DNA from: Anaerolineae bacterium
GTDB taxonomy: Bacteria > Chloroflexota > Anaerolineae > Epilineales > Epilineaceae
DNA length: 64,000 nt
Assembly (NCBI GenBank): GCA_038913135.1
Contig: JBCLES010000010.1
Location: 4,298 to 68,297, forward strand
Reading direction: 5' to 3'
Of this stretch, positions 12,582 through 63,995 are shown one piece after another (position 1 is the first letter of the stretch; each line of letters starts with the position of its first letter). The position numbers and the translations under genes are program-made. The notes under the pieces are model-generated. The model was not told the DNA's origin. It did not search any database and worked only from the letters and a program-made list of their open reading frames with translations.

Positions 12582-15500
12582 CTACTCCTTCTTCACATTC
12601 GGCAAGTAGATCATCGGCGCCCGTGGCGGCCGCACGACTACGCCGCCTATCGCTCGGTCACCGGCCCACTGCTCGATCGAGATCTCGGGTGGCTCGGCGC
12701 TGCCAAGGCCATCGATCTCAAGCGCGAATTCGCCGACTTCCTCGCCTTCGAACGGTATCCGCTCAATTCGAACGTCTAGCATGCCCGGGCCGGTTCGACC
12801 GTCAAGGCTGAACTCCACTGCACGCTCATCCTCCAAGATCGTGCCGCCGGAAACAGTCCCGCCCGCGACGCGCCACCTGCCAAAGAGCCCCTCGTCCGGG
12901 AAGATGATCCGCCCTGTCGCTGGAGCGTCAGGCAGACGGTCGGACCGCACGCGGATCGACCCGTAATCGGGCCCGATAAAGCGATTGCCCGACCGGACGC
13001 CCGCTCCGGACGCACCCGAGCCGGCGACGACCTTCACGTTGCGTTGGCAGATGTTGCTATCGAACGGAACCCAGCCGTCGTGCATTATAGGATCGGTGGC
13101 GGATTGGATTCGGGCGAGGAAGCAAGTGTGTCCGTCGGCGGTCGGTGTCCACGGAATAGCGACAACTACGGTTGCGCCCGGACCAATCCGAGCGATCGTC
13201 GCCTGGCCTATAGCCGGCACCCAATCGTCCGGCCAGCGGATAGAGGTCGCGCCCGGCGAGTCGTACACGATCACCGTCACGTCGCGCGCTTCAGCATCGC
13301 CCACGTTCCGGACTCGGACATAGACCGTGTTTTCGCTGCCCGTGATTGGGTTTTGGTGCTCTGGGACACCATCGGGCATGTTGCGGACCCAAATGTCGGG
13401 GCTATCCCACCACACTTCGCCGTTCCGATTCGAAGGCACGCTTCCAAAGTCGTGCGAATGGTCGCGGCAGACGAGTTCCGGATGGCCTTCGTCCGCAGGT
13501 AGGACGTGCACTCTCGGGATGGGGAAGACCAGACTGCCTGGATTGCCCTGTGAGTTCGTGTAAGTGGCGGTGGCAATCTCGTTGGTCGGCCACGTTCCCG
13601 CCCGATCGGTCATCCGGACCAAGTAACCCCACCGAATCGTCTCGATGCCGATGCGCGGGAACGTCCAGGTCAGGGTCTTGCCGTCCGCGGAGACCTGCGG
13701 CGCCGGCGCACCAAAGAAGGAGCCCGGAATGAGCGTCGCATCAGGCGAGATGACATCGACCACCGTGATGTTGGTGGCCGGAGCGCCCCCGATAACGCCG
13801 ACGATCCGCTCGTAGATCGATATGAGGTCGACGCTGCTGAGTGCGATGAAGGCATCGGACGGCGCGGACGCGATCGATCGCATTAGGTCAGGATCGACTT
13901 CGGAGCCCAAACCGATCGTGAAGATACGTGAGCCGGCCGCTTTGGCCGCCGCCGCCGCGACGACCGGATCGCCGCCCAAATTGGGCTGGCCATCGGACAT
14001 GAGGACGATCACCGGTTGGCTACCAGGTCGATGGCGCGCGCTCTCGAGTTCCGCCTGAGCGGTCAGAATGGCATCGGCAATATTCGTGTTGCCGGCCGGC
14101 ATTAGAGCGTCGATCTCGGCCCTGATAGCGCCGGGCCATGCGTTGAGCCGCTGGTTGAGGATCGGCGAATCGGCGAAAGACACCAAGCCGGCCTGATCGG
14201 TGGTCGGATCGAGGCGATCGAGGAAGCGTTTGGCCGCCGCTCGCAAATCGACGATCGGTCGGCCTTCCATGCTGCCGGAACGGTCGAGGACCAACATCAC
14301 GTCCGCGGCCCGGCGACTGGGCAAACAGGTGCCGTCGAAGCCGGTCAGGCTCAGCGTGACCGCCACTTCCCCGCGCGGCGGGACCGTCCCTGGGTGTGCG
14401 GCCTTGTCGCCCGCGATACGGCACGGCGGCCCGGACGTGCAGACGTTCAGCACGATGCCGTCAAGCGTGATGTTGGTCGTCCAGCCGCGAGTCTCCTTGA
14501 ACAGCCGCATGACGAGGACGACCCTGCTCCCAGCGACTAAGGCGCGCTCCGACGCCGTAAGGTTGTAAGTCGGCGAGTCCAGCGGGCATTCCTCAGGAAG
14601 CAATGGGTTCACTTCCCACAATCGCACCAATTCCGTACCGAGCAGCGGGTCGTAAAGCGATACGCGGAAGTAATCGCGTCCGGTCGGTGGCGCCGGGCTC
14701 AAAGTCGAGATCCGGCGGGCGATCCGTTCGACATCGAAGCTCATCGCGTCGATGGTCTCAGGCATGTCGATGAATTGGAACAGCCGGACGTCTGTTGTGC
14801 CCCATGCCGGGCCGTCAAAGGACGCGGAATAGAATCCCTCGATGGCGCTGCGGGATATCACATCGCCGGTTGGATTGCCGGCCATGCCCCAGCTTCTGCC
14901 CGCCAACTCGAACCAACGGTTCCGGATAACGTTCGGGCCGTGGCACATCAGGGTTGCGGGCGGACGCGGTGTCGGGCAAACAACGGGGGTCGGCTCAGGC
15001 GTATGCGTGGGCGGGATGGGAGTGCCCGGCGTGCGGGTGACCGTCCCTGTCGGGCAGGTGCGGGGCACGTCGATCGCCACGCTCTGTTCGCCGTAGACCG
15101 CGCCGTCGCCGATCGCTTTGACACGGAAGCGGTGACTCGATCCGAGCGGCGTTTCGGGCGGCACCGTGATTGTGACGTCGAAGGAGACTGCGCGGCCGCC
15201 CACTGGAATCGTCAGGTCGGTATAGGCGGGCGGATTCACCGTGAGCCACCGCTGGTAGCTCGGCGGATCGGTTTCGAGTGCGATCCGGGCGATGCGACGC
15301 CCTGCCGCGGACATCAAGTCACGGATCACGCTGGGCAGGTCGCCGGCAACATCGAGCGCGACCGCGTCGCCGCCTAGGTTCGTCCAGCTCGCCCACTGTT
15401 TCCAATATGCCGAAGTCGTGTCACGCCAAGTCCCGCTGCCGCTCACAACGAACAGGAGCGTGATCTTCCGATCGCGCATCGCGTCGAGAACGCTCTGGAA

Positions 15501-17256
15501 GTCGAGGTCGTCCGCCGTGCCCGGCACGCCGTCACGACCGGGATCGAGCACACACGGCGTGGCGTCGGCGCACCAAGTGCCGCCCGGATTGACGGGCGGC
15601 GAAGAGACGCGCGCGTTGAGGTTGTCGTCGTGCGGCACATTGTCGCCGAACATCACGACGAAGCGTCGCGCTTCAGGTCGCCAGCCGACGCTCGAATCCG
15701 TGTAGCTTTCGTAAATCGCCCGCGTGTAAGCCTCGGGTCCGTCGTTTCCGCCCGCCGGGCTGGTCAAGCCGATCGCGCTCTCCACCGCCGCACGATTGTT
15801 AGTGATCGGTTGCCGAAGCAGATAGGGCCAGTCGCCGCTGTCGCCATACGGAGCGATCGGGTAGTCGCGGAAGTCGACGACGCCGAATTGGATGTTGGGG
15901 ATCACGAGCGTCAGATCGTTCATGATCCGAACCGCGTTGGTCTTGGCTGAGTCGAGCACCGGGCCCATGCTCCCGGTCGTGTCGAACGCGAATAGGACGT
16001 CGGCTCGGGCCGGCGCAGGCGGGATGTGGATCACCTTGGTTTCGTGCACGCTTTGGCCTGGGCACGGCGTAGCTGAAAGATCCGGTGTGGAAGTGGGCTC
16101 CGGCGTACCAGGAGTCTCGGTGCCGCATTCGGGATCGATGCGGATGCTGCGCGTGATCTCCTCTTGCCAGCAGCCGGTCGCCGCGTCGAGCACCCAGATC
16201 GTTACGGTGTAATCGCCGGGTTCGAGCGGTTCGCCGGGGAAAGCCTCCGTCGGAATTTCAAGCTCGATCACCGTGCTCCCCGGCGCAATGAGCGCACGGG
16301 AAGCGCTTGAGATCCGAATGTCCGGCGTATACCAGAGCGACACCGTGACCGTGACCGGCTGTGAAGGGAGAACAGTCCCTACGTCGACAAGGACTCCGGC
16401 GGTGGAATCCGGCACATAACATGTTCGATCGAACCCGACGTTGCTGACATGGGCCGTCCGTGGGCACCGATCCGCCCGCAACTCGATATTGTCGACCTTC
16501 GCTCCACCCGGGTGTTGGACCGTGTCATCCGCGTCGAACAAATACGCGATCCACACCCGGCTCTCACCGGCGAACTCGTCCATCGCGTGGGTGTAGGACA
16601 GCCATCCATCCGGGTCCGCCTCAGGATCCGTGATCCAACCGCCCGCGATTCGGATACCCCCCCCATGTCTCGCCATCGGAAGATGCCCAGATGCGAAGGA
16701 AGTCGCCTCCGCCGGTGCAATCGGTGCCGACGCACTCGCTGTTGACCCAGAATTCGAAGTACATCTCAGCGTCGGTCGCGTCGCTCAGATCAAACGGGCC
16801 GGCGATCATCCACGACTCGTTGCAACACGGATAAGTCGCCCCGCAGGCCAGACCGCTCCCCGAAGCGCCTCCGCCAACAGCCCACGCGCTGCGGACACTC
16901 GCTCGGCCCGAACAGCGATTGGCCCAGTAGTACTCGCCGCCCGTCGTGCCGTCGTCGTCGAACACGCTCCATACGGTCCCTGTCGGCCACGAGGTGCTCT
17001 CGAAGTTTTCCGAGAAGACGGTCGACCATTCGTCGGGCGCGCTTGGGGCGAACTCCACCGGTTGCGCGGGCCGCGCCGGTCGCTGATCGACAGTGCCTTC
17101 GGGCGCATCGGCCGAATTCCCGTCAAGAAGGATCACGGCGCCCGAAGACTGCGCGGCTTCGGCCGCTGTGGCGGTCGCTCTGTTCTCGACGTGGAAGCTG
17201 AGCATCGTCGATAGTAATAAAACGGTCGCGAACACAGCCGGAACGGCCGCGCGCAT
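12582..17256 (-). pseudogene. Large secreted multi-vWA protein (about 1570 aa if repaired), split by a +1 frameshift in a G8 run
   Basis: Track ORFs 16621..17349 and 12582..16676 overlap at a run of 8 C (16657-16664). Removing one base joins ...IWASSDGETWGG to IRIAGGWITDPEADPDGW. N-terminal signal peptide from the ATG at 17256 (MRAAVPAVFATVLLLSTML). Two vWA domains with MIDAS motifs (FAFDTTGSMG and LVLDRSGSMEG), PT linkers, a CARDB-like domain and the C-terminus ...MIYLPNVKKE. This could equally be an intact gene with a homopolymer sequencing error. Confidence 0.7.
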
Positions 17257-17511
17257 GGCTGCCGGGCGAGTAGTAGAGTCGTTCACTCTGATGCCTCCGT
17301 GAATAGGACTTCGTGTGCGGGAGCGGTCGCCGACGATGACTGACTTCACTCACAGATAAAGCGCCCGATCGTCTGCTGAACCGGCAACGCGGGTCGCGAT
17401 TGTCGAGGATAAACTATTGCGCTGCGAAACAGGAATTTCTGCGATAGCTTCCGAGGCGAAGGTTTTTCTGGTCCGGGCGCTGAGCGGGTGGCACAGCTTG
17501 GTGGCGCCGCA

Positions 17512-17645
17512 GCGCATCGCCCACACGAGGCGCATCAATCACACGAGGCGGATCGCTCACACTAAGCGCACCAATCGCACGAGGCGCATCACTCACACGA
17601 AGCGCATCGTTCACACGAAGCGCATCGCTCACTCGAAGCGCTCAA
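17512..17645. repeat. 18-bp tandem repeat, 7 full copies plus a partial copy, intergenic
   Basis: gcgcatcgcccacacgag / gcgcatcaatcacacgag / gcggatcgctcacactaa / gcgcaccaatcgcacgag / gcgcatcactcacacgaa / gcgcatcgttcacacgaa / gcgcatcgctcactcgaa / gcgctcaatccg. It lies between the stop of 17664..19220 and the start of the vWA gene. Confidence 0.9.
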
Positions 17646-17663
17646 TCCGTTCCCGCTGCGCCT

Positions 17664-30345: not shown

Positions 30346-33300
30346 ATGCATCGCGCCAATGCAGCTCAGATCATCGCTGGCATAACAGCTTTCGCGCTTT
30401 TCGGCTGGGGCACTTGGGCGGCGATTAAGTCCGCCACCGACGAGACCGCTCTAGATTCGAGCACAATCTTCACAGCGCCGCCGCCTAAGGCGAGCGTTGA
30501 TTCGGCCTGCGCCTCACCGGACCCGTTCGTCGCGCTGGCGGTTCACGCCCGAGGCGTCGACGATACCGCGCACTCGCTCACTCCCGCGATCATCGCGCGG
30601 CGGTCGGTCGGAGGTAATTTCGTCTTAGCCACCCAGGGCGAAGTCGGCGCCGTTTACGGGTTAGCGTTCGATCACCGGCGAGGTCACGTTTATGCCGGCG
30701 CTTATCATCGGGTCGGGTTGCCTATCGGACCCGGCGGTTTGGGCCAGATCTATCGGATCGACCTCGAAAGCGGCGATATCACTGCCTGGGCCTCTCTTGA
30801 AGCGGGCGAAGCCCCGTCCGATCCACTCGCTTCGGCGCAGCTCGTCGGCGAAATCGGTCTCGGCGATCTTGAAGTCTCCGAAGACGGCGCCCAACTCTTG
30901 GTCACCAACCTATCCGACCGACGAATCCATCGCTTCGCTCTTCCGGGCGGAGCGCCGCTCGGCAGCGCTGTCACCGGTGGATCTCGCGAAGCGTGGCGCG
31001 AACACGCGCGGCCGTTCGGTCTCGGAGTCCGTGACGGCCAACTCTATCACGGCGTCGTCAAGGCCCGGACCGACATGACCCTCGAGGGCATACTCTTCGA
31101 GGCCTGGGTCTATAAATCGGATCTGGACGGCCGCAACGAAACCGGGCTCATGCGGACTTGGCTCGGCTATTCGCGACTTGTGCCGTGGACACCGTGGGTG
31201 ACCGACGGCTCATTGAAGAGCGAAGATGCGCCGATGTTGGTCGACATCGACTTTCAGCCCAGCGGCGCCCCGATTCTGGGCTTCCGCGATCGCCAGTCGG
31301 ACATGCATCCGGATTGCGTGTGGCGGCCCGGTTGCACGGGTGGAGCGAGCGTGGGCGATATCATTCCCGCGCGGCGGGTTGAGCCAGTTTGGCGCGCCCT
31401 GACTTCCCCGCCCTTCTACGGCGACGCCGGAGCCGGCGGGTTCGATGCCGTCCTCGGTTCGCTCGCTTCCATTGCGGGCCTCGAATTGGTCGCTGCGCCC
31501 TCGCTGCCGCTTTCCGGAATGCCGACCGGGACATCGAACGGCGTTGACGTGATCTGGTTCGACAACATCGGCGGACGGGCCGCCTATGGTTCCCCGATCT
31601 TCGATGCAAGCGCCGACGACACCCTGATCGATGGCCACGCTTCTGCCGGCGACATCGAGGTGCTTTGCGGCCCGCCTGCTGATCCGGACGCCATAGCGGC
31701 CACCGCGACCGAGGCCGCGGCCGGTCCCGCGACCGAAACCGCGGCGGCGAACGCGAGTGCCACTGCCGTGGCAGCGATAGCGACGACCATTGGCCGAGCT
31801 ACCAACCATCCCGCTACCCAAACGGCTCACGCCCCCACCCATATCGCGCGCTCAACGGATGCCGCCGCAACTGCCACCATGCTGGCGCCGACGCTCCAAG
31901 CGGGCGGGCCGACACGCACCGCGGCCGCCACTCACGCCGCGGAGACCGCGACGGCGGCCGCCCCAAGTCTGAAGGGCATCGCGACGCGAGGTGCGATCGA
32001 GCTGACGCGGGTCGCGGCCGAGCCGACTCAGCATCCGGGCACTCCGGCTGCTGCCGGCGCGGCCTATCGGTTGATGAAGTCGCAGTGCGTGGGCGACAAT
32101 CCGCACTTCGTCACAACTTGCTTCGTGCCGGCTTCCGATGGGCGCGGAAATCTTTACGACGAAGATTGGTTCCTGGATCAGCCGGTATTGGTCGCGTTCA
32201 ACGACGCCGACCCTGAGGATCTTTCGCAGCACCTCATGCTCGCCTACGAGCCACAGGTCGGCGCCGTATTCGGGGTCGGGCATGACCTGGAGCGCGAGCA
32301 GATCTACATTTCCGCCTACAACAAGCGCCTTGCATACCTTGGCCCGCTAGGCGCAGGCGGCATCTACCGGATCGATCTGCCCACGGGACGTGTTGAACCG
32401 TGGGCGTGGCTGGACGCCGGCCTGGATCCGCACGACATGGGGCGCGGCTTCGACAGCTCCGGCGGTCGCTGGGTCGGCCGCACCGGACTCGGCGACATCG
32501 AAGTCACGGAAGACTTCCGTGAGCTCGTAGCGGTCAACATGTACGACCGGCTCCTTTATCGATTCAGCATCCCTGACGGCAAGCTTCTCGGCGCTTTCCC
32601 GCATGGCGCGGTCGGCGAGGTGTGGGCGGAAGACGCACGGCCGTTCGGCCTTGCCGTGAAGGATGAGTGGCTTTACCACGGACTCGTCGATTCCCGCGAG
32701 ACCGCAGCCGACGATGATCCACGGCTCTTGCAAGCATATGTCTATCGATCCAGAACCGATGGCACCGAGATGTCGGAGGTAGCGCGGATCGACATGTCCT
32801 ACTCTAGGGTGCCGGCGTGGGAAGACTGGCCGGAACGAGACGAGGACGAACCGGTTTCGCCGATGCTCGTCGACATCGCGTTCCGGAACGACGGCGATCT
32901 GGTCGTCGGGTTCCGCGAACGGCGCGGCGACGCGCGGATACTGATCGCCGGCGGCGGCGACATGGTGCTCACAATGCGGGTGGGCGACCGCGACGGCCCT
33001 GAGGAGCGGTACATCGCGCTCACATCGCCCGAGTTTTATCAAGACAATATCCGCCATCCCGAGTCATCGTGGGGAACGCTGACTAGTTTGCGCTGGCTCG
33101 ATCAGGTCATCACGACCGTCATCGATCCATGGGAGATTTGGAGCGGCGGGGCGGCATGGTACGACAACGTCTCGGGCGGGATCGTTCGCCGCGAGACCGT
33201 CTACGCCGGCCGCGACCAATCCTTCGGCAAGACTTCCGGCCTGGGCGACCTCGAATCGCTCTGCGAAGCGCCGACGCCAACGCCGACCTTCACGGCAACG

Positions 33301-34722
33301 CCGCCCGTAAGCACGACGCCGTCGACGGCATCCCCGACTCCGACCGCGACGTCGACCGCGACCCCGACTGTTTCCCGCACGTGGACCATTTACCTGCCAT
33401 ACGGTGAGAACCTGTGCGTGCCGGAGAAGCGCTTCGTGGACGTCGTACTCGTCCTCGATCGCTCGACCTCGATGCTCCGCCCGGTCGTCGAAGGTGGCTT
33501 GGCCAAGAACGAGGCCGCCATCGACGCCGCCGCGCGCTTCATCGAAGAGCTGGCGCTGGAGCCGGATCCGACGGATCCGCTCGGCCGCCACGACAACGTC
33601 GCGCTCGTCGGCTTCAACGACACGGCTTGGACGGAAAGCGAGCTAACCAACAATCGCCCCGCGGCTTACGCGGCTCTCGAGCGGCTGCGCGACAAGACTG
33701 TCGAAGGCACGCGTCTCGACTTGGCTATCGCCCAAGGCCAGGTCCCGCTCGACGGTCCTGGACGAGGTCCGGGCAATCAAGCGGTGATCGTCCTTCTCAC
33801 CGACGGGCTGCCAAATCGGGTGCCTTTCGACGCCTCGAAGGGCGAGCGGCAAGAGGACACGGTCATGCGGGCGGCCGAAGCGGTGAAGGCGGCCGGCAGC
33901 ACCGTATACACCATCGGGCTTGGGACACCGATGGACATCAATCCGCGGCTGCTTATCTCGATGGCGACCGAGCGCTTCAACTACTACTATGCGCCGCTGC
34001 CCGAGGCGCTCGAAGGCATCTATCGCATTATCGCGGACGAGTTCACGTTCTGCGGCCGGGAGAGAGTCCCGCCGCCTGAGCCGTGCATCCCGGAACATGT
34101 CTACGCCGACGTCATGCTGGTCTTGGACATGTCGACCTCGATGCGAAGGACCACGCGCGACGGTCGGCTGAAGTCGGAGGCTGCGCTCGAGGCGGCGAAG
34201 CGTTTCGTAGACGAGCTCGACCTGGAGCGCGACGGCTGGGGGCGGCAGGATCAGGTGGGGATCGTCGGCTTCAACGGCACGGCGTGGACCGAAACGACGC
34301 TGACGGATGATCGGGAGCGGATCCAACTGGCGTTCGAGCGGCTGCCGGACCGGATGGAGGAAGGCACGCGGCTCGATCTCGCGCTGCGGGAAGGTCTGGC
34401 CGCTTGGCATGCCTCCGGACGAATTCCGGAGAATCGACCCGTCATGGTTTTCCTGACCGACGGCCTGCCCAACCAGGTTCCGACGCCGGTGCCTTCGGGC
34501 CGGCAGGAGGACACCGTGTTGGCCGAAGCCGAGCGGGTGAAGGCGGCGGGAATGCGCGTCTTCACGATCGGGCTCGGGCTGCCGGACGATGTCCTGCGCG
34601 AATTGCTCGAAGGTGTAGCTTCGAGTCCGCGCGACCATTACTTCGCGCCGGACGGAGAGGATCTGGCCGATATCTACCGCCAGATCGCGGGGCGGCTCGT
34701 CGAATGTCCGAGGGAGGAGTAA
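30346..34722 (+). CDS. Giant anchored protein (1458 aa): N-terminal TM, a duplicated unknown module, PT linker and two C-terminal vWA domains
   Basis: TM anchor IIAGITAFALFGWGTWAAI. Two homologous modules start at GEVGAVYGLAFD (30637) and PQVGAVFGVGHD (about 32254). PT linker at 33270-33380. vWA MIDAS motifs are VLVLDRSTSM and MLVLDMSTSM. ATG at 30346 with an AGGGGGG RBS. Confidence 0.8.
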   Translation: MHRANAAQIIAGITAFALFGWGTWAAIKSATDETALDSSTIFTAPPPKASVDSACASPDPFVALAVHARGVDDTAHSLTPAIIARRSVGGNFVLATQGEVGAVYGLAFDHRRGHVYAGAYHRVGLPIGPGGLGQIYRIDLESGDITAWASLEAGEAPSDPLASAQLVGEIGLGDLEVSEDGAQLLVTNLSDRRIHRFALPGGAPLGSAVTGGSREAWREHARPFGLGVRDGQLYHGVVKARTDMTLEGILFEAWVYKSDLDGRNETGLMRTWLGYSRLVPWTPWVTDGSLKSEDAPMLVDIDFQPSGAPILGFRDRQSDMHPDCVWRPGCTGGASVGDIIPARRVEPVWRALTSPPFYGDAGAGGFDAVLGSLASIAGLELVAAPSLPLSGMPTGTSNGVDVIWFDNIGGRAAYGSPIFDASADDTLIDGHASAGDIEVLCGPPADPDAIAATATEAAAGPATETAAANASATAVAAIATTIGRATNHPATQTAHAPTHIARSTDAAATATMLAPTLQAGGPTRTAAATHAAETATAAAPSLKGIATRGAIELTRVAAEPTQHPGTPAAAGAAYRLMKSQCVGDNPHFVTTCFVPASDGRGNLYDEDWFLDQPVLVAFNDADPEDLSQHLMLAYEPQVGAVFGVGHDLEREQIYISAYNKRLAYLGPLGAGGIYRIDLPTGRVEPWAWLDAGLDPHDMGRGFDSSGGRWVGRTGLGDIEVTEDFRELVAVNMYDRLLYRFSIPDGKLLGAFPHGAVGEVWAEDARPFGLAVKDEWLYHGLVDSRETAADDDPRLLQAYVYRSRTDGTEMSEVARIDMSYSRVPAWEDWPERDEDEPVSPMLVDIAFRNDGDLVVGFRERRGDARILIAGGGDMVLTMRVGDRDGPEERYIALTSPEFYQDNIRHPESSWGTLTSLRWLDQVITTVIDPWEIWSGGAAWYDNVSGGIVRRETVYAGRDQSFGKTSGLGDLESLCEAPTPTPTFTATPPVSTTPSTASPTPTATSTATPTVSRTWTIYLPYGENLCVPEKRFVDVVLVLDRSTSMLRPVVEGGLAKNEAAIDAAARFIEELALEPDPTDPLGRHDNVALVGFNDTAWTESELTNNRPAAYAALERLRDKTVEGTRLDLAIAQGQVPLDGPGRGPGNQAVIVLLTDGLPNRVPFDASKGERQEDTVMRAAEAVKAAGSTVYTIGLGTPMDINPRLLISMATERFNYYYAPLPEALEGIYRIIADEFTFCGRERVPPPEPCIPEHVYADVMLVLDMSTSMRRTTRDGRLKSEAALEAAKRFVDELDLERDGWGRQDQVGIVGFNGTAWTETTLTDDRERIQLAFERLPDRMEEGTRLDLALREGLAAWHASGRIPENRPVMVFLTDGLPNQVPTPVPSGRQEDTVLAEAERVKAAGMRVFTIGLGLPDDVLRELLEGVASSPRDHYFAPDGEDLADIYRQIAGRLVECPREE

Positions 34723-37195: not shown

Positions 37196-37325
37196 CGCGT
37201 CCACCACCGGCGTCGAAATTCATCCGTCGCACCCGTCCGCCATGGCGGCATACGCCTTCATCGCCGGCGTCGAAAGTCATCTGTCGCCCTCGCCTACCAT
37301 ATCGGCATACGCCTCCATCGGCGGA
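37188..37325. repeat. Tandem duplication (57- and 66-bp units, about 2.3 copies) spanning the gcvP 3' end and the DUF3179 start
   Basis: Read on the minus strand: ATGGAGGCGTATGCCGATATGG...GACAGATGACTTTCGACGCCGGCG (37318-37262) / ATGAAGGCGTATGCCGCCATGG...GACGGATGAATTTCGACGCCGGTGGTGGACGCG (37261-37196) / ATGAAGGCTGAG... (37195 onward, the DUF3179 start). Confidence 0.8.
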
Positions 37326-43039: not shown

Positions 43040-43102
43040 CGACGGGCAAACGCTCGATCGCATCTTCTCGCGCTGATTCAATCTTCACGCGCTGACTTTG
43101 AT

Positions 43103-43663
43103 ATGAACGAGCAGGAACGCGGATCGCTTGTCGACAAGAACGAAGCGGCCGGGCCAGGTGGCCCGGCCGCTCATCGTGTTCGGGCGGAAGGTCGCGGTCC
43201 AGTCGCGATCGGGATCGTGACGGTCTCGGACAGTAGAACGCCTGAAACAGACGATAACGGGCGGTGGCTCAAGGCGGCTATCGAGACAAGCGGTCACTCC
43301 GTCGCGGCTTATCTCTTGGTTCGCGACGAGCCCGCAGAAGTGATCGAGGCGTTCGAGAAGGTTGCCGGCTCCGGAGCACAGATCGTCATCTTCAACGGCG
43401 GAACTGGAGTCGCGCGCCGCGACACGACGGTGGATGCGATAGCAAAGCGCTTCGAGCGGGAGCTGCCCGGCTTCGGTGAACTCTTTCGGATGCTCAGTTG
43501 GAGGGAGATCGGCTCGGCCGCGATGCTTTCGCGCGCTACGGCAGGGATCTGGCGCGACTGCGTCGTCTTTTGCCTTCCGGGATCCGCTAAGGCGGTCGAA
43601 CTCGCATGGAGCGCCTTGATCGAGCCGGAAGTTGAGCACCTGGCGTGGGAGCTCGTGCGCTGA
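43103..43663 (+). CDS. moaB: Molybdenum cofactor biosynthesis protein B (MogA/MoaB family)
   Basis: VAIGIVTVSDSR...IVIFNGGTGVARRDTTVDAI...ELPGFGELFR...MLSRATAGIW...VVFCLPGSAKAV. Confidence 0.8.
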   Translation: MNEQERGSLVDKNEAAGPGGPAAHRVRAEGRGPVAIGIVTVSDSRTPETDDNGRWLKAAIETSGHSVAAYLLVRDEPAEVIEAFEKVAGSGAQIVIFNGGTGVARRDTTVDAIAKRFERELPGFGELFRMLSWREIGSAAMLSRATAGIWRDCVVFCLPGSAKAVELAWSALIEPEVEHLAWELVR

Positions 43664-43825
43664 GTCCACGCCCTGGGCGAAGACGGACGTCGGAAGGTAG
43701 TCGGAGGGCAGTCGAAAGCTCGTTGGTCGACGGCACCGCGCTGAGCCTCCTGCATCCGTGCACAACTGCACTGACGCACAATCGCACAAAGCAAAGAAGC
43801 GGTACAGATCCGACCCTCTGAACTC

Positions 43826-43854
43826 TCGACAAGTTCCGCTCGCTCGACTATAAT
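43826..43854 (+). promoter_or_regulatory. Sigma-70-like promoter upstream of rpmB
   Basis: -35 TCGACA (43826-43831), 17-nt spacer, perfect -10 TATAAT (43849-43854). It lies 78 nt upstream of the rpmB ATG. Confidence 0.45.
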
Positions 43855-43931
43855 TCGTGTTCGCATTTCGTCGGGCTACGGTTTGGTTCGGCGCGCGGCA
43901 CATCGAACAGACATGCTTCAGGAGCAACGTA

Positions 43932-44171
43932 ATGGCGCGAAAGTGCAAGCTCAGTGGCAAGGGGCCGTTTGTCGGCAATAGCGTTTCCTTCTCGCATAAG
44001 CGGACTAAGAAGATCTGGCTGCCCAACCTCCAGCATAAGCGGTTGTGGGTGCCGGAGGAGAAGCGCTTCGTGCGAATTCGATTGAGCGCGCGCGCTCTCC
44101 GGACCGTCTCGAAGAACGGCCTGATGTCATATCTTCGAGCGCAGGGCCTGACGATGAAGGACGTGACGTAG
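43932..44171 (+). CDS. rpmB: 50S ribosomal protein L28
   Basis: MARKCKLSGKGPFVGNSVSFSHKRTKKIWLPNLQHKRLWVPEEKRFVRIRLSARALRTVSKNG is the canonical L28 sequence. Confidence 0.9.
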   Translation: MARKCKLSGKGPFVGNSVSFSHKRTKKIWLPNLQHKRLWVPEEKRFVRIRLSARALRTVSKNGLMSYLRAQGLTMKDVT

Positions 44172-44248
44172 GTCTCACCAACGCAATTTGAGCGGTCACG
44201 AGAACGGACCGGCTGGCGTGACGCTCCGACTCGTTTGACTAAATTGAG

Positions 44249-44284
44249 AGCGGGCGGCCGAATGGCCGCCCGCTTTTCGTTTCG
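44249..44284 (+). terminator. Rho-independent terminator after rpmB
   Basis: AGCGGGCGGCC-gaat-GGCCGCCCGCT stem followed by TTTCGTTTCG. Confidence 0.65.
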
Positions 44285-44568
44285 CAAAGATGGCTGAAGA
44301 GTTCCGACGGCGGATGCCGTCACGGATCGCGACCTTCTGAAGAGAGTACGGGGATCGCGACCTTCTAAAAAGAGTTCGGGCCAGCGCCCGTAACCACAGC
44401 CCATCGGCGAGCACTGGCCCAGTAGCACTCTCACGTCTAACGCAGTCACCACGCGATCGTGGCAGACCCCCACACAGCCGCTGGCGTGTCGTGTGCTACG
44501 CACCGGAGTATAAGGACAGTGTTGCTTTTCGAGCATAAAGGTTAGATTAAGGTTAAGTACACGACGCG

Positions 44569-44597
44569 TTGACCTGACTGCTACCGCCGACTAGAAT
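44569..44597 (+). promoter_or_regulatory. Sigma-70-like promoter for the SRP RNA gene
   Basis: -35 TTGACC (44569-44574), 17-nt spacer, -10 TAGAAT (44592-44597). An A/T-rich stretch (ataaaggttagattaaggttaagt) lies immediately upstream. Confidence 0.5.
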
Positions 44598-44623
44598 CCC
44601 CAGGCCATCCTTCTAGGTTGCTT

Positions 44624-44762
44624 GACGCCGGCGGCGGTGGCCCAGCCAGGGTCCTGCGCGGCGGAGCCCTTCGAACCGCGTCAGGTCCGGAAGGAAGCAG
44701 CGCTAAGGAGATGTTTCCGGGCGCCGCAGGGGTGCCTTGGCTGTGCCTCCTACGCCGGCGTC
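44624..44762 (+). ncRNA. ffs: Signal recognition particle RNA (4.5S/small SRP RNA type)
   Basis: Contains the invariant domain IV sequence GTCAGGTCCGGAAGGAAGCAGC (44679-44700). The flanks pair as a long helix (GACGCCGGCG...CGCCGGCGTC and GCCAGGG...CCTTGGC). The ends are approximate; transcription may start near 44603. Confidence 0.8.
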
Positions 44763-44806
44763 TGTATTTACTCGACTCGTGCACATCGCTGAGAGCGCAA
44801 ACGCGC

Positions 44807-46471
44807 ATGCCCGAACGTCGGCCATCAGTGCCCAACACGATTGGGGTCCGACGTCGAGCGACTGTGCTCGGCCCTACGAGTCTGTCTCGCTTTCCCGAGT
44901 TCTGGTCGAACACGGTGCGTATCATTGCGGCCGCGGTCGGTTTGGCCGCCGCTCTGGAGTTCGCCGCCGTACCGGTGACGCTCCAAGTCGATGGGGCTGA
45001 GCGCTCCATGGTGACACGGGTCGGAACCGTCGGCGCTCTTCTCGCCGAGGCCATGGTGGACGTCGAGCGCGGTGACCTAGTCTCGCCGCCGCCTTCGAGC
45101 CACCTCCGGCGCGGGGAAACCGTGGTGGTGGAACGCGCTAGGCTGGTCCGCATAAATGTTGAAGGTGACGTCCGCTCGATTCGTACGCACGCGATCACAC
45201 CCCTCGGAATGCTGCATGCGGCCGGAGTCAGTGTCGATCACGATGATCGCGTGGCCGTGGGCGGTCAGGGCTGGCCGGCAGATCGACCGCTCTGGACCAC
45301 TTCCGCTGCCGGCAAGACCGAACAAGGCAACGACGCCGAACGGTCGCTTGTAGCCTCGTCCCGAGCCGTGGCCGCCGATCGGTCCCGTCACGGTACAGGC
45401 GTCGCGACGCTGGCTGACGCTTTTGAAGTTGTCCCGAAGACGCGCCGGTCGGAGAATCAGTCGCCGTCGGACTTCATAGACGGCACCGACTCGGAAGTGA
45501 TCGTTCACATCGACATTCTTCGACCAGCACCAATCACCGTGGTTGAGGACGGGATCCCGATTGCGATCATGCTTACGGGGCGGACGGTCGGAGAGTCATT
45601 GGCGGCAGCTGGTCTGCACCTCTGGAACGAAGACGTGCTCTTTCCTAGCTCGGAGACCCTGCTCTCTCGAACCTCGCGCGTCTCGATCCAGCGGGCGATT
45701 CCGTTCACGGTCAGCTCCGATGGCGAGAACCGATCGGTGCGAGCCGTTGCGGACACGGTTAGCGAAGCGCTGGCCATCGCTGGCGAAACGCTCGTCGGGC
45801 GCGATTACTCGATCCCGCCCTCCGATACGGCTCTGCGCTCCGGGATTGAAGTTCAAGTGGTTCGCGTCGTCGAGGACTTCCTGGTACAGCAAGTCGATGT
45901 GCCATTCGGCACCGAAACGGAGGCCGACTGGGGACTACCCCTCGACGAAAAGCGTGTCTTGCGTGAAGGCGAACCAGGGTCGAAGACGCAGCGCATTCGG
46001 ATCGTTTACGAGGACGGCGAGGAGATCAGCCGCGATCTCATAGAGGAGATGTTGGATCGAGAACCTGTCGCTCAGCGCATCGCTTATGGGACGCGCATCG
46101 ATTGGAACACCGTTCAGACCGAAGCGGGCCCCAAGCGCTATTGGCGCAAGTTGAGGGTATATGCCACCAGCTACAGCGCTTCCCGCGCCGGGACGGCTCC
46201 ATCGGCGCCATGGTACGGCCTGACGCGCCTGGGTTGGCCGATGCGAAAAGGCATCATCGCAGTCGATCCGCGGATCATCCCGCTCAGGACTGAGATGTAC
46301 GTGCCCGAATACGGCCTCGGAGTCGCGGGCGACACGGGCGGCGGGCTCAAGCAGTACCATATCGACCTAGGCTACGATGACGACAACTATCAGAGCTGGC
46401 ACTGGTGGGTCGACGCCTACTTGCTCGAACCTCTGCCGCCCGAGGGCTCGATCCCCTGGATCTTGCCGTGA
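44807..46471 (+). CDS. YabE/RpfB-like cell-wall protein (DUF348 repeats, G5 domain, C-terminal 3D domain)
   Basis: N-terminal TM segment. DUF348-like VTLQVDGAERSMVTRVGTVGALLAEA. G5-like VPFGTETEADWGLPLDEKRVLREGEPGSKTQRIRIVYEDGEEISR. 3D domain YATSYSASRAG...GIIAVDPRIIPLRTEMYVPEYGLGVAGDTGGGLKQYHIDL. The position next to rsmA matches Bacillus yabE-ksgA. The part of the track ORF upstream of 44807 overlaps ffs. Confidence 0.75.
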   Translation: MPERRPSVPNTIGVRRRATVLGPTSLSRFPEFWSNTVRIIAAAVGLAAALEFAAVPVTLQVDGAERSMVTRVGTVGALLAEAMVDVERGDLVSPPPSSHLRRGETVVVERARLVRINVEGDVRSIRTHAITPLGMLHAAGVSVDHDDRVAVGGQGWPADRPLWTTSAAGKTEQGNDAERSLVASSRAVAADRSRHGTGVATLADAFEVVPKTRRSENQSPSDFIDGTDSEVIVHIDILRPAPITVVEDGIPIAIMLTGRTVGESLAAAGLHLWNEDVLFPSSETLLSRTSRVSIQRAIPFTVSSDGENRSVRAVADTVSEALAIAGETLVGRDYSIPPSDTALRSGIEVQVVRVVEDFLVQQVDVPFGTETEADWGLPLDEKRVLREGEPGSKTQRIRIVYEDGEEISRDLIEEMLDREPVAQRIAYGTRIDWNTVQTEAGPKRYWRKLRVYATSYSASRAGTAPSAPWYGLTRLGWPMRKGIIAVDPRIIPLRTEMYVPEYGLGVAGDTGGGLKQYHIDLGYDDDNYQSWHWWVDAYLLEPLPPEGSIPWILP

Positions 46472-47500: not shown

Positions 47501-49399
47501 TCACCCGCCCCACACCACCCCACCCGGGCACGGTAGGTCGCGGGCGAGTTCGTCGTAGATCGATTCGAGCGCCTCGGCATTCGGTGCTGCGAAGTAGTGA
47601 CCCGGCGTGCTTGCGATAGCCCTGAGCAAGGCCGCATCGACGTCGTCGCCCAAACCGATCGTGTAGATCGTCAAACCGGCATCGCGCCCTGCGGCGGCCG
47701 CGGCCAGCGCGGCGTCCGACGTCCCCGCATCCGGACGGCCATCGGTGAGGATTACGATAACCTGAGTGAAGTCCGGCACGGCGTCGATCGCAGCCTCCAA
47801 CATCGATGCCGACATGTCGAGTCCTTCGTCTATCCGCGTCCCCTCGCCCGTCAGGACGGAATCGATCCCCGCGTGGAGCGCCGCATGGTCAGCGGTCACA
47901 TCGACGATGATCCGGGCTCGGGCGTCGAACGCTACGATGCCGGCGAGATCGCCTCGCCCGAAGCCAGCGAGCACGTCGACAAATGCTTTGGCCGCCGCTT
48001 TGGCAGCTTCGAGCTTCGTCGTCCCACCACTCGCTTCGTCCATGCTTGAACTGGTGTCGATCGCGAGCGCGACGAGAAGCCGTCTCGTGCCCGGCTTACA
48101 CGTATTCTTCATAGCGACAGGCAGCCAGATCCGTCCGGGCTCCGTCGTGCTCGTCGGTGTGTTGGTGCTCGTCGCCTCGGGCATCGGCGTCGATTCGGGC
48201 GTGTCTATCGGGATTGGCGTTGGGCCCGGCGTGTCCGTGGGCAGACCGGTCGGGGTGGCGGTCGGGCAGATTTCGACGCTCAGGTCGGGCGAGGTCAGCG
48301 GGATCTCGACTGCGCGATCCATCGAGTCGACGATTCTCACGGCCGAAAGGGCGGAGTCCCGGAGCGGCCTCGTGCCGCCCGCCATGGCGGCAGAGATGCG
48401 ATATGTAGCGGTAAGAACGTCGCCGCGCTCAACGTCCGACCACGCGAAGACGTGAACGCCGTCGACCTCGCTCGGCGCCGGCGCGCCGCTGCCCGGGATC
48501 ATCGAGAAGCCAGGACCGAGCGCCTCGGCCAGGCTGACTGCGCCGGGCTGCAGGGATTCGACCTCCTCCATGAGCTCTGCCAGATCGCTCTCGACCCGCC
48601 TGGCCTGATTTAGGTTATGGTAGAAGCCGCCGCTCGCGATGTTGCGGATGTACTTACAGTGGTCACCGGGAATCCTGATGAGTCCGAACGGCGTCGCGTC
48701 CGGATTGCAGACTCCGATCACAGTGATGTCGGCGCCCTTAGCCCGATTCGCTGCGCCGACCTGTCGGTTGCAGAAGCTGTCAAAGCCCGTCGGGCAGCCG
48801 GTCGAGAAGAGGACTATGGCTTCGACGGCCGGCAGGGCTTCAGTGCGCCGCTCCTCTTCCAGTAAATCCTGGGCTTTGCCGAGCCAGTCGAAGTAGCGCA
48901 TGGTCGGATCGACGCGATCGAGGCGGATCGATCCGATCGCACCCATCACAGAACTCTTGCTGTCGGTCATCTCCTGCTCGACACGTTCCTGGATGCTCAC
49001 CGAAACCACGCCAGCCTTCGTGCCCGCGACATGGAAGGGCATCGAGTTCGCGATGCTTCGCGCCGCGTTCTTCACCTCGTCGAGGTGGTCCTCCATCAGA
49101 AGGTGCCGCCCGATGACGAATACGACCCGCATCGGCAGCTCAGTCGGGCAGGTAAGCCCGAGCGTGACCGTGACCTCTGCCGCCTCGCACTCCCGAATCG
49201 GTGACGCGACTACGGTGTCTGAGATCGCGAGCGTACACGCGCTCACCGGCTTGCGTGCGACCGTGCCCTGCGCGGCGACAGGCTCGATGCGCTCGAAGAG
49301 CAAGGCGACCGAGAGTAAGGCGAGCGAGAGAAAGGCGATGCCGGACGCGATCGCTAGGGTCGCGATTCCGGCCGACGAGCAGACAAGGTCGAGCCGCAT
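47501..49399 (-). CDS. Membrane-anchored protein with a degenerate vWA-like domain, PT linker and canonical C-terminal vWA domain
   Basis: N-terminal TM IATLAIASGIAFLSLALLSVALLF. The first vWA-like domain lacks MIDAS (VVFVIGRHLLMEDH). PT linker CPTATPTGLPTDTPGPTPIPIDTPESTPMPEATSTNTPTSTT, then RIWLPVAMKNTC, then vWA with ALAIDTSSSM...VILTDGRPD...IYTIGLG...YFAAPNAEALESIY. Confidence 0.8.
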   Translation of the reverse strand: MRLDLVCSSAGIATLAIASGIAFLSLALLSVALLFERIEPVAAQGTVARKPVSACTLAISDTVVASPIRECEAAEVTVTLGLTCPTELPMRVVFVIGRHLLMEDHLDEVKNAARSIANSMPFHVAGTKAGVVSVSIQERVEQEMTDSKSSVMGAIGSIRLDRVDPTMRYFDWLGKAQDLLEEERRTEALPAVEAIVLFSTGCPTGFDSFCNRQVGAANRAKGADITVIGVCNPDATPFGLIRIPGDHCKYIRNIASGGFYHNLNQARRVESDLAELMEEVESLQPGAVSLAEALGPGFSMIPGSGAPAPSEVDGVHVFAWSDVERGDVLTATYRISAAMAGGTRPLRDSALSAVRIVDSMDRAVEIPLTSPDLSVEICPTATPTGLPTDTPGPTPIPIDTPESTPMPEATSTNTPTSTTEPGRIWLPVAMKNTCKPGTRRLLVALAIDTSSSMDEASGGTTKLEAAKAAAKAFVDVLAGFGRGDLAGIVAFDARARIIVDVTADHAALHAGIDSVLTGEGTRIDEGLDMSASMLEAAIDAVPDFTQVIVILTDGRPDAGTSDAALAAAAAGRDAGLTIYTIGLGDDVDAALLRAIASTPGHYFAAPNAEALESIYDELARDLPCPGGVVWGG

Positions 49400-51660: not shown

Positions 51661-51662
51661 AA

Positions 51663-53827: not shown

Positions 53828-53957
53828 CACCGGCCACCCATATCGCGATTCGGGCCGCATGCCAGATGGCTCGACCGGACGCACGCTGCAGGGAGCTTAC
53901 AGCGACTGCGTCGGAGGAGACTCCGTCGGCGGCTCGGCCGGCCGATGCCTCCCGATC

Positions 53958-54197: not shown

Positions 54198-54331
54198 ACG
54201 AGCCACTCCTCAGCGGCGAGCCGCTCCTCCTCGCGGAGCCGAGTTCGCACGCTCATAAGACTCGCTCTCGCACCGACGAACCGCTTCCCTCCGTCGAGCC
54301 GAGTTCGCACGCTCATACGACTCGCTCTCGC
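54181..54331. repeat. 60-bp tandem repeat (2 full units plus the homologous moaD start) at the yitJ-like/moaD junction
   Basis: Minus-strand units at 54331-54272 and 54271-54212 both contain GCGAGAGCGAGTC(G/T)TATGAGCGTGCGAACTCGGCTC. The third unit is the genuine moaD start, GGCTCGTATGACCGTGCAAATCCGGCTC. Confidence 0.85.
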
Positions 54332-56981: not shown

Positions 56982-56984
56982 GCA

Positions 56985-59809: not shown

Positions 59810-60004
59810 GTTTCCTCCAAGAATGATTGATCGAATCCGGGCTAGTCTCCCCGGGGTGCCACCGAGCCTGATCGACTGCGCGTGGCTCCCGAACGGTGGC
59901 CCGAAGCGTATGATAGTATACGGGCCGGCCGCGGTCTGGCAATCGAGGCAACGGCGGAGCCTAACGTCGCGGCGCGCCGACTTCATGGCCGAGAGGGTAT
60001 CAGC

Positions 60005-62257: not shown

Positions 62258-62422
62258 TGGCGAGGGCTGAGGCCGAGCGCTGAGGACTAAGACCGACAGC
62301 TTTTCGGAAGGGCCATCCGCAGTGCGAATGACCGAGGAGTTGTTGCGGCTCTCGACCGTCGGCTGCATTCTCGCCGACCAGCGCCCGCTCGCCGTATCGA
62401 TGCAGATGCCGAGATGCGGTCG

Positions 62423-62457
62423 GCGGGGTGCGGGCGCTCTCGCGCTCCGCACCCCGC
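62423..62457. terminator. GC-rich hairpin between convergent genes
   Basis: GCGGGGTGCGG-gcgctctcgcgct-CCGCACCCCGC, an 11-bp stem with no U tract. Confidence 0.35.
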
Positions 62458-62486
62458 TCGGCCCTCGTCAGTGTACTGGCTTCGCC

Positions 62487-63995
62487 TTACGGCTCCGGAC
62501 ACTCCACTATCCGACCCGCGATCTGGCGATAGATCGATTCCAGATCATCGCCGTCAGGCGCGTAGTAGAAGTCCTCCGGGCTGGAGGCGGCTTCTTCCAA
62601 AAGTTCATGCGCCACGTCCGCCGGATCGCCGAGGCCGATTGTGAAGACTCGCGTTCCAGCTTCCTTCGCCTCCGTAGCGGCCTCGAGCACCGTCTCCTCT
62701 TGTCGTCCGCTCACCGGATGTAGAGGCACGCGATTCGGCAAGCCGTCGGTGAGCAGGATCAGCACCGGGCTGTTGTCGTCGATTCGCGCGGTGGCGTCCA
62801 AGACCGACTGACCCTGCAACAGGGCCAGGTCGAGCCGGGTGCCGTTAGCGATGCGATCGAGCAGTGACTCGATAGCCGTATCGATGGCGTCCGGATCGTT
62901 TGACAGCTCGATCGCGGTCCACGCCGTGTCGTTGAAGCCGGCAATGCCGACACGATCGTGCCGGCCGAGAATGTCGCCGACCAGGTTGAGCTGCTCGACG
63001 AACGCGCGCGCAGCGGCCAGGGCCGCCTCGTGCTTCGTCCTGCCGCTGCGAGTCTCGCGATACATCGAGGTCGACATGTCGATGACAAGGACCGCGTCGG
63101 CGTAGATCAGCTCCGGGATGCACTCGTCCGGATCCTGTCGCGCGATCGGCAAGTAGATCGTGTAAGAGGACGGAGTCGGCGTCAGGGTCGAAGTCGGCGT
63201 CTTCGTCGGCTCCGGTGTATCGGTCGGCGTCGGCGTCGACGTTTCAGTCGGAGTCGGCGTGGGCGTTATGCAGATGCCCATCATGATGCCTATGTCCGGC
63301 ACCGGCAGCTCCTTGACGCGCCGGCGGCTGTCGATTAGCTGCGCCGATCCGGTCAGCGTGTAGGCGGCCGTCACTTCGCCTGGCGTATTCACCTTGTAGG
63401 TAGCGGTATATGCTTCCTCATCAAGCTGATAGCTGTCGCTCCATATCCAAGTCAGCCGCGTCCCTTCGTCGATGAATTCGACTTCCGGCACGATATCGTT
63501 GGTTGCGAGACCGCCCGGCACGAAGTCAAGACCTGGTGGAAGGAGCTGTGACAGCGTCAGAGTCCTTGCTTTCTCTCCGCCATCGAATTCGTTCATCTGG
63601 CGGCGGACCATCCCTTCGAGCTTGCCGCTCTCGGCGTACTCGGTGTGGTCCCTAAGGTTGCGGGCCATCTTCTTGGTGTTGCGGCAGTACCAGGCGCCGG
63701 GGACCTGTGGGCACCCGACGAAGTACGTGTAGCGCTTCAGTTGGTCGGCCGCGGCCAACATCGCAGCCAGCATGTGGGCGTAGTGCGACTTCGTGTACCC
63801 GAAGATGACTACGAATTCGCACGGCTTGACTCCGCGAGGCGCATCGCGACCCATCTTTTGCATCAATCGGACACCCTCGCCCGCGGCGTCCTCGATGGTC
63901 ACCGCATTCGGTTCGTAGCCGGTCGTGGTCTTGCGAAGCTCGTTGCGTGTCCGCGATTCGTCGACGGCAACGCCGCGGGTCGGATCCAAGACCAC
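62487..63995 (-). CDS. vWA-domain protein, paralog of 47501..49399 (the 5' end may lie beyond the window edge)
   Basis: Degenerate vWA-like N-terminal part (FVVIFGYTKSHY), PT linker ITPTPTPTETSTPTPTDTPEPTKTPTSTLTPTPS, then YTIYLPIARQDPDEC, then vWA with VLVIDMSTSM...LLTDGLPN...VFTIGLG...FYYAPDGDDLESIYRQIAGRIVECPEP. Confidence 0.8.
   Translation of the reverse strand: MVLDPTRGVAVDESRTRNELRKTTTGYEPNAVTIEDAAGEGVRLMQKMGRDAPRGVKPCEFVVIFGYTKSHYAHMLAAMLAAADQLKRYTYFVGCPQVPGAWYCRNTKKMARNLRDHTEYAESGKLEGMVRRQMNEFDGGEKARTLTLSQLLPPGLDFVPGGLATNDIVPEVEFIDEGTRLTWIWSDSYQLDEEAYTATYKVNTPGEVTAAYTLTGSAQLIDSRRRVKELPVPDIGIMMGICITPTPTPTETSTPTPTDTPEPTKTPTSTLTPTPSSYTIYLPIARQDPDECIPELIYADAVLVIDMSTSMYRETRSGRTKHEAALAAARAFVEQLNLVGDILGRHDRVGIAGFNDTAWTAIELSNDPDAIDTAIESLLDRIANGTRLDLALLQGQSVLDATARIDDNSPVLILLTDGLPNRVPLHPVSGRQEETVLEAATEAKEAGTRVFTIGLGDPADVAHELLEEAASSPEDFYYAPDGDDLESIYRQIAGRIVECPEP

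Follow-up and report, generated by a model that had tools for sequence, protein, structure and literature searches.

Four genes for predicted secreted vWA proteins in a 64-kb segment of an Anaerolineae chromosome, three of them encoding a lineage-wide C-terminal YLP-Cys-vWA-Cys cassette

We analyzed a 64,000-nucleotide stretch of DNA of an Anaerolineae bacterium (assembly GCA_038913135.1, contig JBCLES010000010.1, positions 4,298 to 68,297), hereafter called the window, which carries four genes encoding proteins with von Willebrand factor type A (vWA) domains. The genes and their products are designated V1 to V4, and all coordinates are those of the whole 64-kb window (Table 1). In our judgment it is fairly probable that the four products are modular, Sec-secreted surface proteins, and that the C-terminal part of V2, V3 and V4, here named the YLP-Cys-vWA-Cys cassette, functions as a module for metal-dependent binding or retention that is shared by diverse passenger domains. 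The proteins as such belong to a known kind, the secreted vWA surface proteins, while the C-terminal motif and the module are possibly novel; no description of the cassette or of the YLP motif was found in the literature.

The cassette is composed of elements that follow one another in a fixed order: (i) a linker rich in proline and threonine (PT linker), (ii) the motif x(Y/W/F)LPxxx(R/K) with a nearby cysteine (xxC), (iii) a vWA domain with a complete metal ion-dependent adhesion site (MIDAS), and (iv) a C-terminal cysteine. We defined it by a vWA domain at the extreme C-terminus, a Cys at most ~20 aa before the MIDAS, another Cys within the last ~25 aa, and a YLP-like motif after a PT linker. 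All of these features were found in V2, V3 and V4; none of the bracket features occurs in V1, which has only a bare YLP tail, so that the YLP element is common to all four proteins. A first-pass annotation of this DNA had missed two features, the YLP motif as the unifying element and the cysteines that bracket the vWA domain, and its statement that all four proteins end in vWA domains holds for V2, V3 and V4, the vWA domain of V1 being internal.

The presence of vWA domains in all four genes, proposed in the same annotation, was confirmed by Pfam scans of the open reading frames (ORFs). The scores for PF00092 were 108.4 bits (V1), 110.4 bits (V2, two domains), 97.2 bits (V3) and 62.7 bits (V4), with a cut-off of 23.8, and those for VWA_2 ranged from 59.6 to 99.6 bits (cut-off 27). 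The MIDAS is complete in each protein, and the strings LDRSGSM, LDRSTSM, LDMSTSM, IDTSSSM and IDMSTSM are present as reported, as is (I/V)(F/Y)TIGLG. The motif given as TDG(L/R)PN is better written TDGxP(N/D), since V3 reads TDGRPD. Residues D31, S33, S35, T104 and D136 of the MIDAS are invariant in the four cassettes of the window.

Hydrophobic segments suitable for export, described earlier as signal or transmembrane (TM) anchors, were found at the N-termini of all four proteins, that of V4 being visible only on sister contigs. Together with AxAQ-like sites, PT linkers and conserved Cys pairs, these segments suggest that V1-V4 are Sec-exported, extracellular proteins.

Table 1. Coordinates of V1-V4 and of elements located within or next to them
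Feature	Position	Strand	Description
V1	12582..17286	-	1567-aa multidomain secreted protein (predicted); interrupted by a frameshift in the window
V1 C-terminal YLP tail	12582..12614	-	..PRAPMIYLPNVKKE followed by the stop codon; C-terminus ..IYLPNVKKE
V1 canonical MIDAS vWA	13830..14303	-	LDRSGSM ... SDGQPN; Pfam VWA at aa 792-949 of ORF 12582..16676
Homopolymer C8 (G8 on the coding strand)	16657..16664		Site of the +1 frameshift in V1
18-nt tandem repeat	17493..17654		Intergenic, upstream of V1; consensus ~GATGCGCYTCGTGTGARY on the V1 coding strand
V2	30346..34722	+	1458-aa secreted protein (predicted)
V2 beta-module copy A	30616..31668	+	Internal repeat
V2 beta-module copy B	32230..33264	+	AlphaFold model
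V2 cassette copy 1	33376..34065	+	TIYLPYGENLC, vWA LDRSTSM, end ..FTFC
V2 cassette copy 2	34066..34719	+	PC..LDMSTSM..VECPREE
V3	47501..49399	-	632-aa secreted protein (predicted)
V3 YLP-Cys-vWA-Cys cassette	47504..48148	-	Cassette profile 241.7 bits, positions 2-213
V4	62487..64000	-	Architecture as V3; 5' end outside the window, at ~64382
V4 C-terminal cassette	62490..63176	-	YTIYLPIARQDPDEC, IDMSTSM, end ..VECPEP

The architecture of the cassette proteins is most easily described for V3. Its export signal is followed by a vWA-like alpha/beta domain without a MIDAS (aa 55-282) and by a beta-sandwich (aa 286-376), as delimited in an AlphaFold model with a mean predicted local distance difference test (pLDDT) value of 78. 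The C-terminal part consists of a disordered PT linker (aa 385-437) carrying RIWLPVAMKNTC, the MIDAS vWA domain (aa 440-621) and the terminal PCPGG (C-terminus ..PCPGGVVWGG). Comparison of V3 with 16 orthologues (36-71% identity) revealed eight invariant residues: P427, C434, D448, S450, S452, T521, D553 and C624. Two of these, P427 and C434, are located in the motif x(Y/W)LPxA(L/M)(K/R)xxC directly after the PT-rich linker, D448, S450, S452, T521 and D553 make up the complete MIDAS, and C624 lies in the terminal PCPGG.

V4 shares this organization. The ORF 62487..63995, which had been taken for a whole gene, is cut by the end of the window, and the full-length protein has 631 aa. An upstream degenerate vWA domain plus a beta module had been proposed as common to V3 and V4; BLASTP alignment (32% identity over 419 aa, upstream modules included) and the AlphaFold model of V3 agree with this, and the MIDAS is absent from the N-terminal vWA-like domains of both proteins. 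In one V3 orthologue (P0023, 36% identity), the N-terminal vWA-like domain retains the residues D-R-S-Q-S, which suggests that the ancestor of the V3/V4 family had two active vWA domains.

Two further genes adjoin V4. Just past the end of the window, the locus L002:1740-5198 encodes a 1152-aa predicted secreted protein with weak matches to lactonase/Vgb-lyase beta-propellers and to CCP_MauG, in which a PE/PT-rich linker precedes the C-terminal sequence RVYLSVVWR, a variant of the YLP tail. On the other side, the region 59882-62257 (+) is convergent with V4 and encodes a protein of ~750 aa with a lipobox-like N-terminus (..LVAIACDDK), for which no family match was obtained; it adjoins V4 also in a relative at 69% identity.

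In V2, the export signal is followed by two all-beta modules of ~370 aa, a PT linker, the YLP motif and two Cys-bracketed MIDAS vWA domains. The second cassette copy lacks a YLP motif because it directly follows the first. The two beta-modules are 35% identical (E 2e-55), and copy B was modelled by AlphaFold with high confidence (pLDDT 85) as 24 strands, probably arranged in a six-bladed propeller. The module had no match in Pfam and no sequence match in the PDB. A Foldseek search with a model comprising the module and a vWA domain returned only vWA matches among the top 50 and no fold match for the module. One or two copies are present in many Chloroflexota proteins, nearly always together with a C-terminal vWA domain, and distant homologues (25-31% identity, E 5e-25 to 1e-6) were found in the N-terminal part of SdrD-B-like/SpaA-like surface proteins of Streptomyces.

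V1 differs from the other three proteins in several respects. It had been described as one gene at 12582..17256; in the window it is represented by two ORFs (12582..16676 and 16621..17349), which can be joined only across a +1 frameshift, the export-signal N-terminus being encoded by the ORF 16621..17349 in a frame other than that of the main ORF. The frameshift coincides with the sole homopolymer of eight or more bases in the window. In the sister assembly GCA_038912965.1 the run has seven G residues and V1 is intact (L088:5203-9906), with a GTG start codon equivalent to position 17286. All V1 orthologues (49-78% identity) are likewise intact, with lengths of 1566-1625 aa. Contigs from public runs were only distant ones and gave zero coverage of the G-run.

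The intact protein consists of an export signal, a jelly-roll-like domain, a weak vWA_4/integrin-beta-like domain (aa 228-357 of ORF 12582..16676 in the Pfam scan), a PT linker, the canonical MIDAS vWA domain, a GBS104-like Ig domain, a CARDB domain and the YLP tail. Its MIDAS residues are LDRSGSM ... NT ... SDG. The vWA domain lies internally, at about aa 995-1150 of 1567, and is followed by ~400 aa of Ig-like/CARDB domains and the short YLP tail. It has no YLP/Cys bracket, and the cassette profile aligns with it only at positions 16-204.

The tandem repeat upstream of V1 has ~8 copies in the window and seven in the sister MAG (metagenome-assembled genome; L088). This difference in repeat number and the G7/G8 difference resemble the variation of contingency loci, though both could be assembly noise. 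Directly upstream of V1 and on the same strand (17664-19220, -) lies a gene for a protein of 518-530 aa with an N-terminal hydrophobic segment, which is also present in a sister MAG and has no Pfam or NCBIfam match.

In order to define the relationships among the four proteins, we compared them all against all by BLASTP. The similarity noted earlier between the C-terminal vWA domain of V2 and that of V4 amounts to 61% identity over 212 aa, and the first vWA domain of V2 is 49% identical with V4. The vWA domain of V1 is ~34% identical with the others. These alignments indicate that V3 and V4 are true whole-length paralogues, that V2 shares with them only the C-terminal cassette, and that V1, with a more distant internal vWA domain and a short YLP motif, is an outlier. 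The original description as four paralogues is thus valid for the vWA domains, which are homologous, and not for the proteins, which form no uniform family. The DNA sequences of the cassettes have diverged to 61-68% identity, and they are therefore old paralogues; a recent duplication was rejected on the same grounds.

The cassette is by no means confined to the window. At least 359 related loci were found in representative genomes, and the top 79 of them come from a few MAGs (as many as 11 from one), almost all of which bear the label Chloroflexota. A hidden Markov model of the cassette detected 103 C-terminal cassette ORFs in the top 79 loci, 19 of which contained two to four each. The vWA domain started 171-217 aa before the stop codon in all 78 related ORFs, 73 of which had a YLP-like motif ahead of it. 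The passengers in these relatives comprise NHL, SGL, LVIVD and FG-GAP propellers, a second vWA plus Ig, the V2 module and N-terminal parts of the V3 type. Two to four cassette genes often lie within 6 kb in relatives (L092:4335-6581, L021, L025 and L056). Since multi-cassette loci recur in this way, the local density of the window is typical of the lineage.

A profile search with the cassette in 1.84 billion cluster representatives gave 34,106 matches at E<=1e-3, 7,317 at <=1e-10 and 1,131 at <=1e-30. Among the 150 best matches, the cassette ended at most 30 aa from the C-terminus in 135; of the C-terminal matches, 129 of 129 had the upstream Cys, 123 of 129 the terminal Cys and 112 of 129 a YLP-like motif. 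Homologues with names are labelled Anaerolineae, Ardenticatenales or Caldilineae. These distributions indicate that the cassette is a lineage-wide element, present in many copies per genome across MAGs of these groups, and not a local peculiarity. The first-pass annotation had regarded the four genes as a family expansion outside the usual contexts of vWA proteins. This is correct in that no partner system is present (see below); the expansion itself is lineage-wide and not local. Because the cassette recurs many times per genome across the lineage, the four genes fit the ordinary context of secreted vWA proteins resembling adhesins, here in a form specific to the lineage.

The YLP motif also occurs outside the cassette. 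In the V1 family a YLP tail was found within the last 40 aa of 16 out of 25 proteins, as compared with 6.6% of internal 40-aa windows (related sequences being counted as independent). The motif follows 86 PT linkers in ~1 Mb of related loci; 75 of these linkers lead into a cassette and nine to a stop codon within 25 aa. Informative cases were found among homologues of the V2 module that have no vWA domain. In one of them (P0047), a PT/PS linker is followed by HVYLPIVGDVAMESW and the stop codon. In two others (P0074 and P0077), the PT linker precedes a canonical sortase signal made up of LPNTG or LPQTG, a TM helix and RRR. Since vWA-less homologues of the same module end in either a YLP tail or an LPXTG signal, the YLP or YLP-vWA element occupies the position of a cell-wall anchor.

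On the basis of these observations we propose the following. V1-V4, the products of four independent genes, would be exported via the Sec pathway as modular extracellular proteins of Chloroflexota of the Anaerolineae/Ardenticatenales/Caldilineae type. The two bracket cysteines may form a disulfide between the N- and C-terminal ends of the vWA domain, clamping it as in the vWF A domains, and the metal ion of the MIDAS most likely binds a carboxylate-bearing ligand. The cassette could thereby hold or dock its passengers, among them the predicted propeller pair of V2 and the degenerate vWA plus Ig unit of V3 and V4, at the cell surface or in the matrix of filamentous bacteria. We favor a role in binding or retention because the cassette is C-terminal, follows a spacer, is combined with many unrelated passengers and takes the place of LPXTG in homologues.

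Several points weigh against this proposal. The YLP region of V3 (residues 389-437) has AlphaFold pLDDT values below 50. The top 79 loci were chosen by a MIDAS-pattern search and are hence biased toward the cassette, a bias that the scan of 1.84 billion representatives removes only partly. When all ORFs are considered, YLP tails are only weakly enriched (10 observed, ~6.6 expected), and the case for the tail consequently rests on its context after PT linkers and on its conservation in the V1 family. Moreover, an outward-facing, adhesive role of the vWA domain fits the same data as anchoring does.

This last interpretation, in which V2-V4 are conventional adhesins exposing the C-terminal vWA domain as a distal ligand-binding tip and are held to the cell by some other anchor, e.g. 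an uncleaved N-terminal signal-anchor, is the main rival, and we regard it as possible, with a probability well below that of a retention module. In the best fold matches (SpaC, Mfa5, RrgA-type pilus tips, LapA, integrins and CMG2) the vWA domain does form the adhesive head, and the N-terminal hydrophobic segments of V1 and V3 are long (a helix of residues 10-37 in the AlphaFold model of V3) and could act as signal anchors. However, an AxAQ-like site following the hydrophobic segment is kept in the V3 orthologues, which suggests cleavage; LPXTG anchors occupy the same C-terminal position in homologous passengers, which implies that the C-terminus is proximal to the cell; and an identical tip on dozens of different passengers would be less economical than a common anchor.

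A more far-reaching idea, which we put forward as speculative and rather doubtful, is that x(Y/F)LPxxx(R/K) is a hitherto unrecognized C-terminal signal by which filamentous Chloroflexota sort or assemble proteins, and that the Cys-clamped MIDAS vWA domain is its partner. The ligand of the vWA domain might, for instance, be the acidic or carboxylate terminus of a YLP tail on another protein (in trans) or the YLP-(D/E) segment that precedes the domain in its own chain (in cis). If this were true, YLP-vWA pairing would link dozens of secreted proteins in a surface or sheath network and would represent a non-covalent counterpart of sortase/LPXTG anchoring.

The assignment of V1-V4 to an intracellular or membrane system, be it MoxR/AAA+-vWA, BatA-D aerotolerance or chelatase-type, is very improbable and can be considered effectively refuted. 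It could draw only on the common vWA fold, which yields weak similarity to the NCBIfam models for BatA, PRK13685 and cobaltochelatase, and on the names ChlD ("Mg-chelatase subunit ChlD") or YegL given to some homologues by JGI. The cut-offs are 380-779 bits, and the scores reach 23-45; AAA+ partners are missing both from the window and from the six orthologue neighborhoods inspected; and an extracellular location is indicated by the PT linkers, the Cys pairs and the export segments. The "ChlD/Mg-chelatase" names are thus misleading and are corrected by the present analysis. Least credible of all is an artefact of assembly or annotation (collapsed repeats or a chimeric MAG contig), which the homopolymer frameshift in V1 might bring to mind: the gene order and proteins are repeated on independent sister assemblies, the divergence of the cassettes is that of old paralogues and not of collapsed copies, and full-length orthologues of all four proteins exist in other MAGs (36-78% identity).

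The genomic context was examined for a system to which these genes might belong. In agreement with the earlier observation that no MoxR/AAA, BatA-D, sortase or pilus gene lies nearby, Pfam scans of ~45 ORFs of the window detected no MoxR/AAA+, Bat, sortase, pilin or Tad genes, and a regular-expression search of all six frames revealed no LPXTG-like signal, which would comprise the motif, a TM helix and basic residues at the end. No MoxR/AAA+ partner or BatA-D set was present in six orthologue neighborhoods, and no recurrent partner gene was found around the orthologues of V2 and V3. The order TsaD-V3-KsgA is kept in a relative at 69% identity and is not seen at 46%, and a V2 orthologue at 57% identity still has DUF3179, GcvP and LOG nearby. 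An operon or partner hypothesis was accordingly rejected, as these neighborhoods are conserved only among close relatives and lack a recurrent partner. V1-V4 are separate transcription units amid housekeeping genes and form neither an operon nor a system.

The remainder of the window (G+C content ~64%) is ordinary chromosome with genes on both strands. Its gene order and proteins recur on independent sister assemblies, and MAGs with the accessions JBCLEU, JBCLEO and JBCLEP are the source set of the window. A 48-mer of gcvP found no exact counterpart in the contigs of the representative genomes, and the source species is thus absent from that set. The neighboring genes encode a catalase, Tex, a LIV-type ABC transporter, DegT, an epimerase, a GT2 glycosyltransferase, a Ser/Thr kinase fused to FGE-sulfatase, GcvP, LOG, a Kelch-repeat protein, a G5/3D protein, KsgA, TsaD, a PHP-domain protein, LipA, a homocysteine methyltransferase/MTHFR fusion, ThiS, MoaE, citrate synthase and the RNA of the signal recognition particle (SRP).

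The kinase gene (27738-30182, -), which is divergent from V2, encodes an 814-aa Ser/Thr protein kinase with a C-terminal FGE-sulfatase domain; it is not adjacent to V2 orthologues. Putative sensors diversified by diversity-generating retroelements (DGRs) in multicellular bacteria are a subject of PMC10907252. In the window, including the surroundings of the kinase-FGE gene, neither a reverse transcriptase nor a DGR template/variable repeat pair was found.

Some further features of the window concern its annotation. The bacterial large SRP RNA (Rfam RF01854, 94.8 bits) is located at 44555-44769 (+), and for this reason the start of ORF 44618..46471 must lie further downstream. Overlap with the rpmB and MoCF-type genes called on the other strand in sister contigs shows that the 483-aa ORF 43085..44536 (-) is spurious. 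Short tandem repeats occur within three genes: a 48-nt unit in three copies in the GT2/methyltransferase gene (22102-22245), a 57-nt unit in two copies at the 3' end of gcvP (37196-37309), and a 60-nt unit in two copies at the 3' end of the homocysteine-methyltransferase/MTHFR gene (54211-54330).

Filamentous Chloroflexota occur in large numbers in sediments and in activated sludge, providing the backbones of flocs, and the attachment of proteins to the surface or sheath of these monoderm-like bacteria is poorly understood. With more than 1,100 representatives, multiple copies per genome, many passengers and a location at the LPXTG position, the cassette is a testable candidate for lineage-specific surface display or adhesion. 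The analysis also defines two unannotated modules for family curation, i.e. the ~370-aa all-beta module of V2 and the degenerate vWA plus Ig unit of V3 and V4.

Among known systems, the BatA/BatB and MoxR-associated vWA proteins share with V1-V4 the fold, BatB (3ibs) being matched over a single domain with a TM-score of ~0.73. Unlike them, V1-V4 are not encoded in a Bat operon, are not accompanied by a MoxR ATPase and lack the double TM segment found at the N-terminus of BatA-type proteins. The NCBIfam models for BatA and PRK13685 gave 28.7-44.7 bits (cut-offs 380 and 432), and TIGR02442 (ChlD/CobT) gave 23-32 bits (cut-off 779), the AAA+ domain being absent.

Foldseek matched the vWA domains with those of PTMP1, Mfa5, SpaC, integrin beta, CMG2, LapA and BatB. 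The matches to SpaC, Mfa5 and PilB had E values of 1e-8 to 1e-16, which denote resemblance only. The adhesins and pilus tips of Gram-positive bacteria (SpaC, RrgA/GBS104, MSCRAMM/SdrD-like) are, like V1-V4, secreted and modular, with a MIDAS vWA domain, Ig-like partners and a Pro/Thr-rich stalk before the C-terminal element. In contrast to these, the vWA domain of V2-V4 stands at the extreme C-terminus, in the position of the sorting signal, is bracketed by cysteines and is preceded by YLP. The C-termini of V1-V4 carry no sorting signal, and no match to PF17210 (SdrD B-like) or SpaA was obtained for V1-V4 with Pfam.

The best Foldseek match to V3 over both of its vWA-like domains was PTMP1, a tandem-vWA matrix protein of the mussel byssus (E 1e-17, ~560 aligned columns). 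Both are tandem vWA proteins, PTMP1 extracellular and V3 predicted to be so; however, their identity is 12-13%, the first domain of V3 lacks a MIDAS, and a beta-sandwich and a PT linker are inserted in V3, so that the likeness is architectural only. The eukaryotic vWF A domains, integrin I domains and CMG2/TEM8 have the same fold and a complete MIDAS. The cysteines flanking the vWA domain of the cassette at both ends recall the A1 and A3 domains of vWF, in which the N- and C-terminal Cys residues are joined by a disulfide. The cassette differs from this group in being bacterial and in its partner domains, and the corresponding disulfide is a predicted one.

A parallel in general design is offered by the LPXTG signal, the C-terminal domain of type IX secretion substrates, the SLH domain and dockerin. 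No dedicated processing enzyme or receptor for the cassette was identified, and the cassette has no relationship to any of these elements in sequence or fold. What it has in common with them is that each is a stereotyped C-terminal element placed after a spacer, carried by many secreted passengers, repeated many times within a genome and confined to particular lineages.

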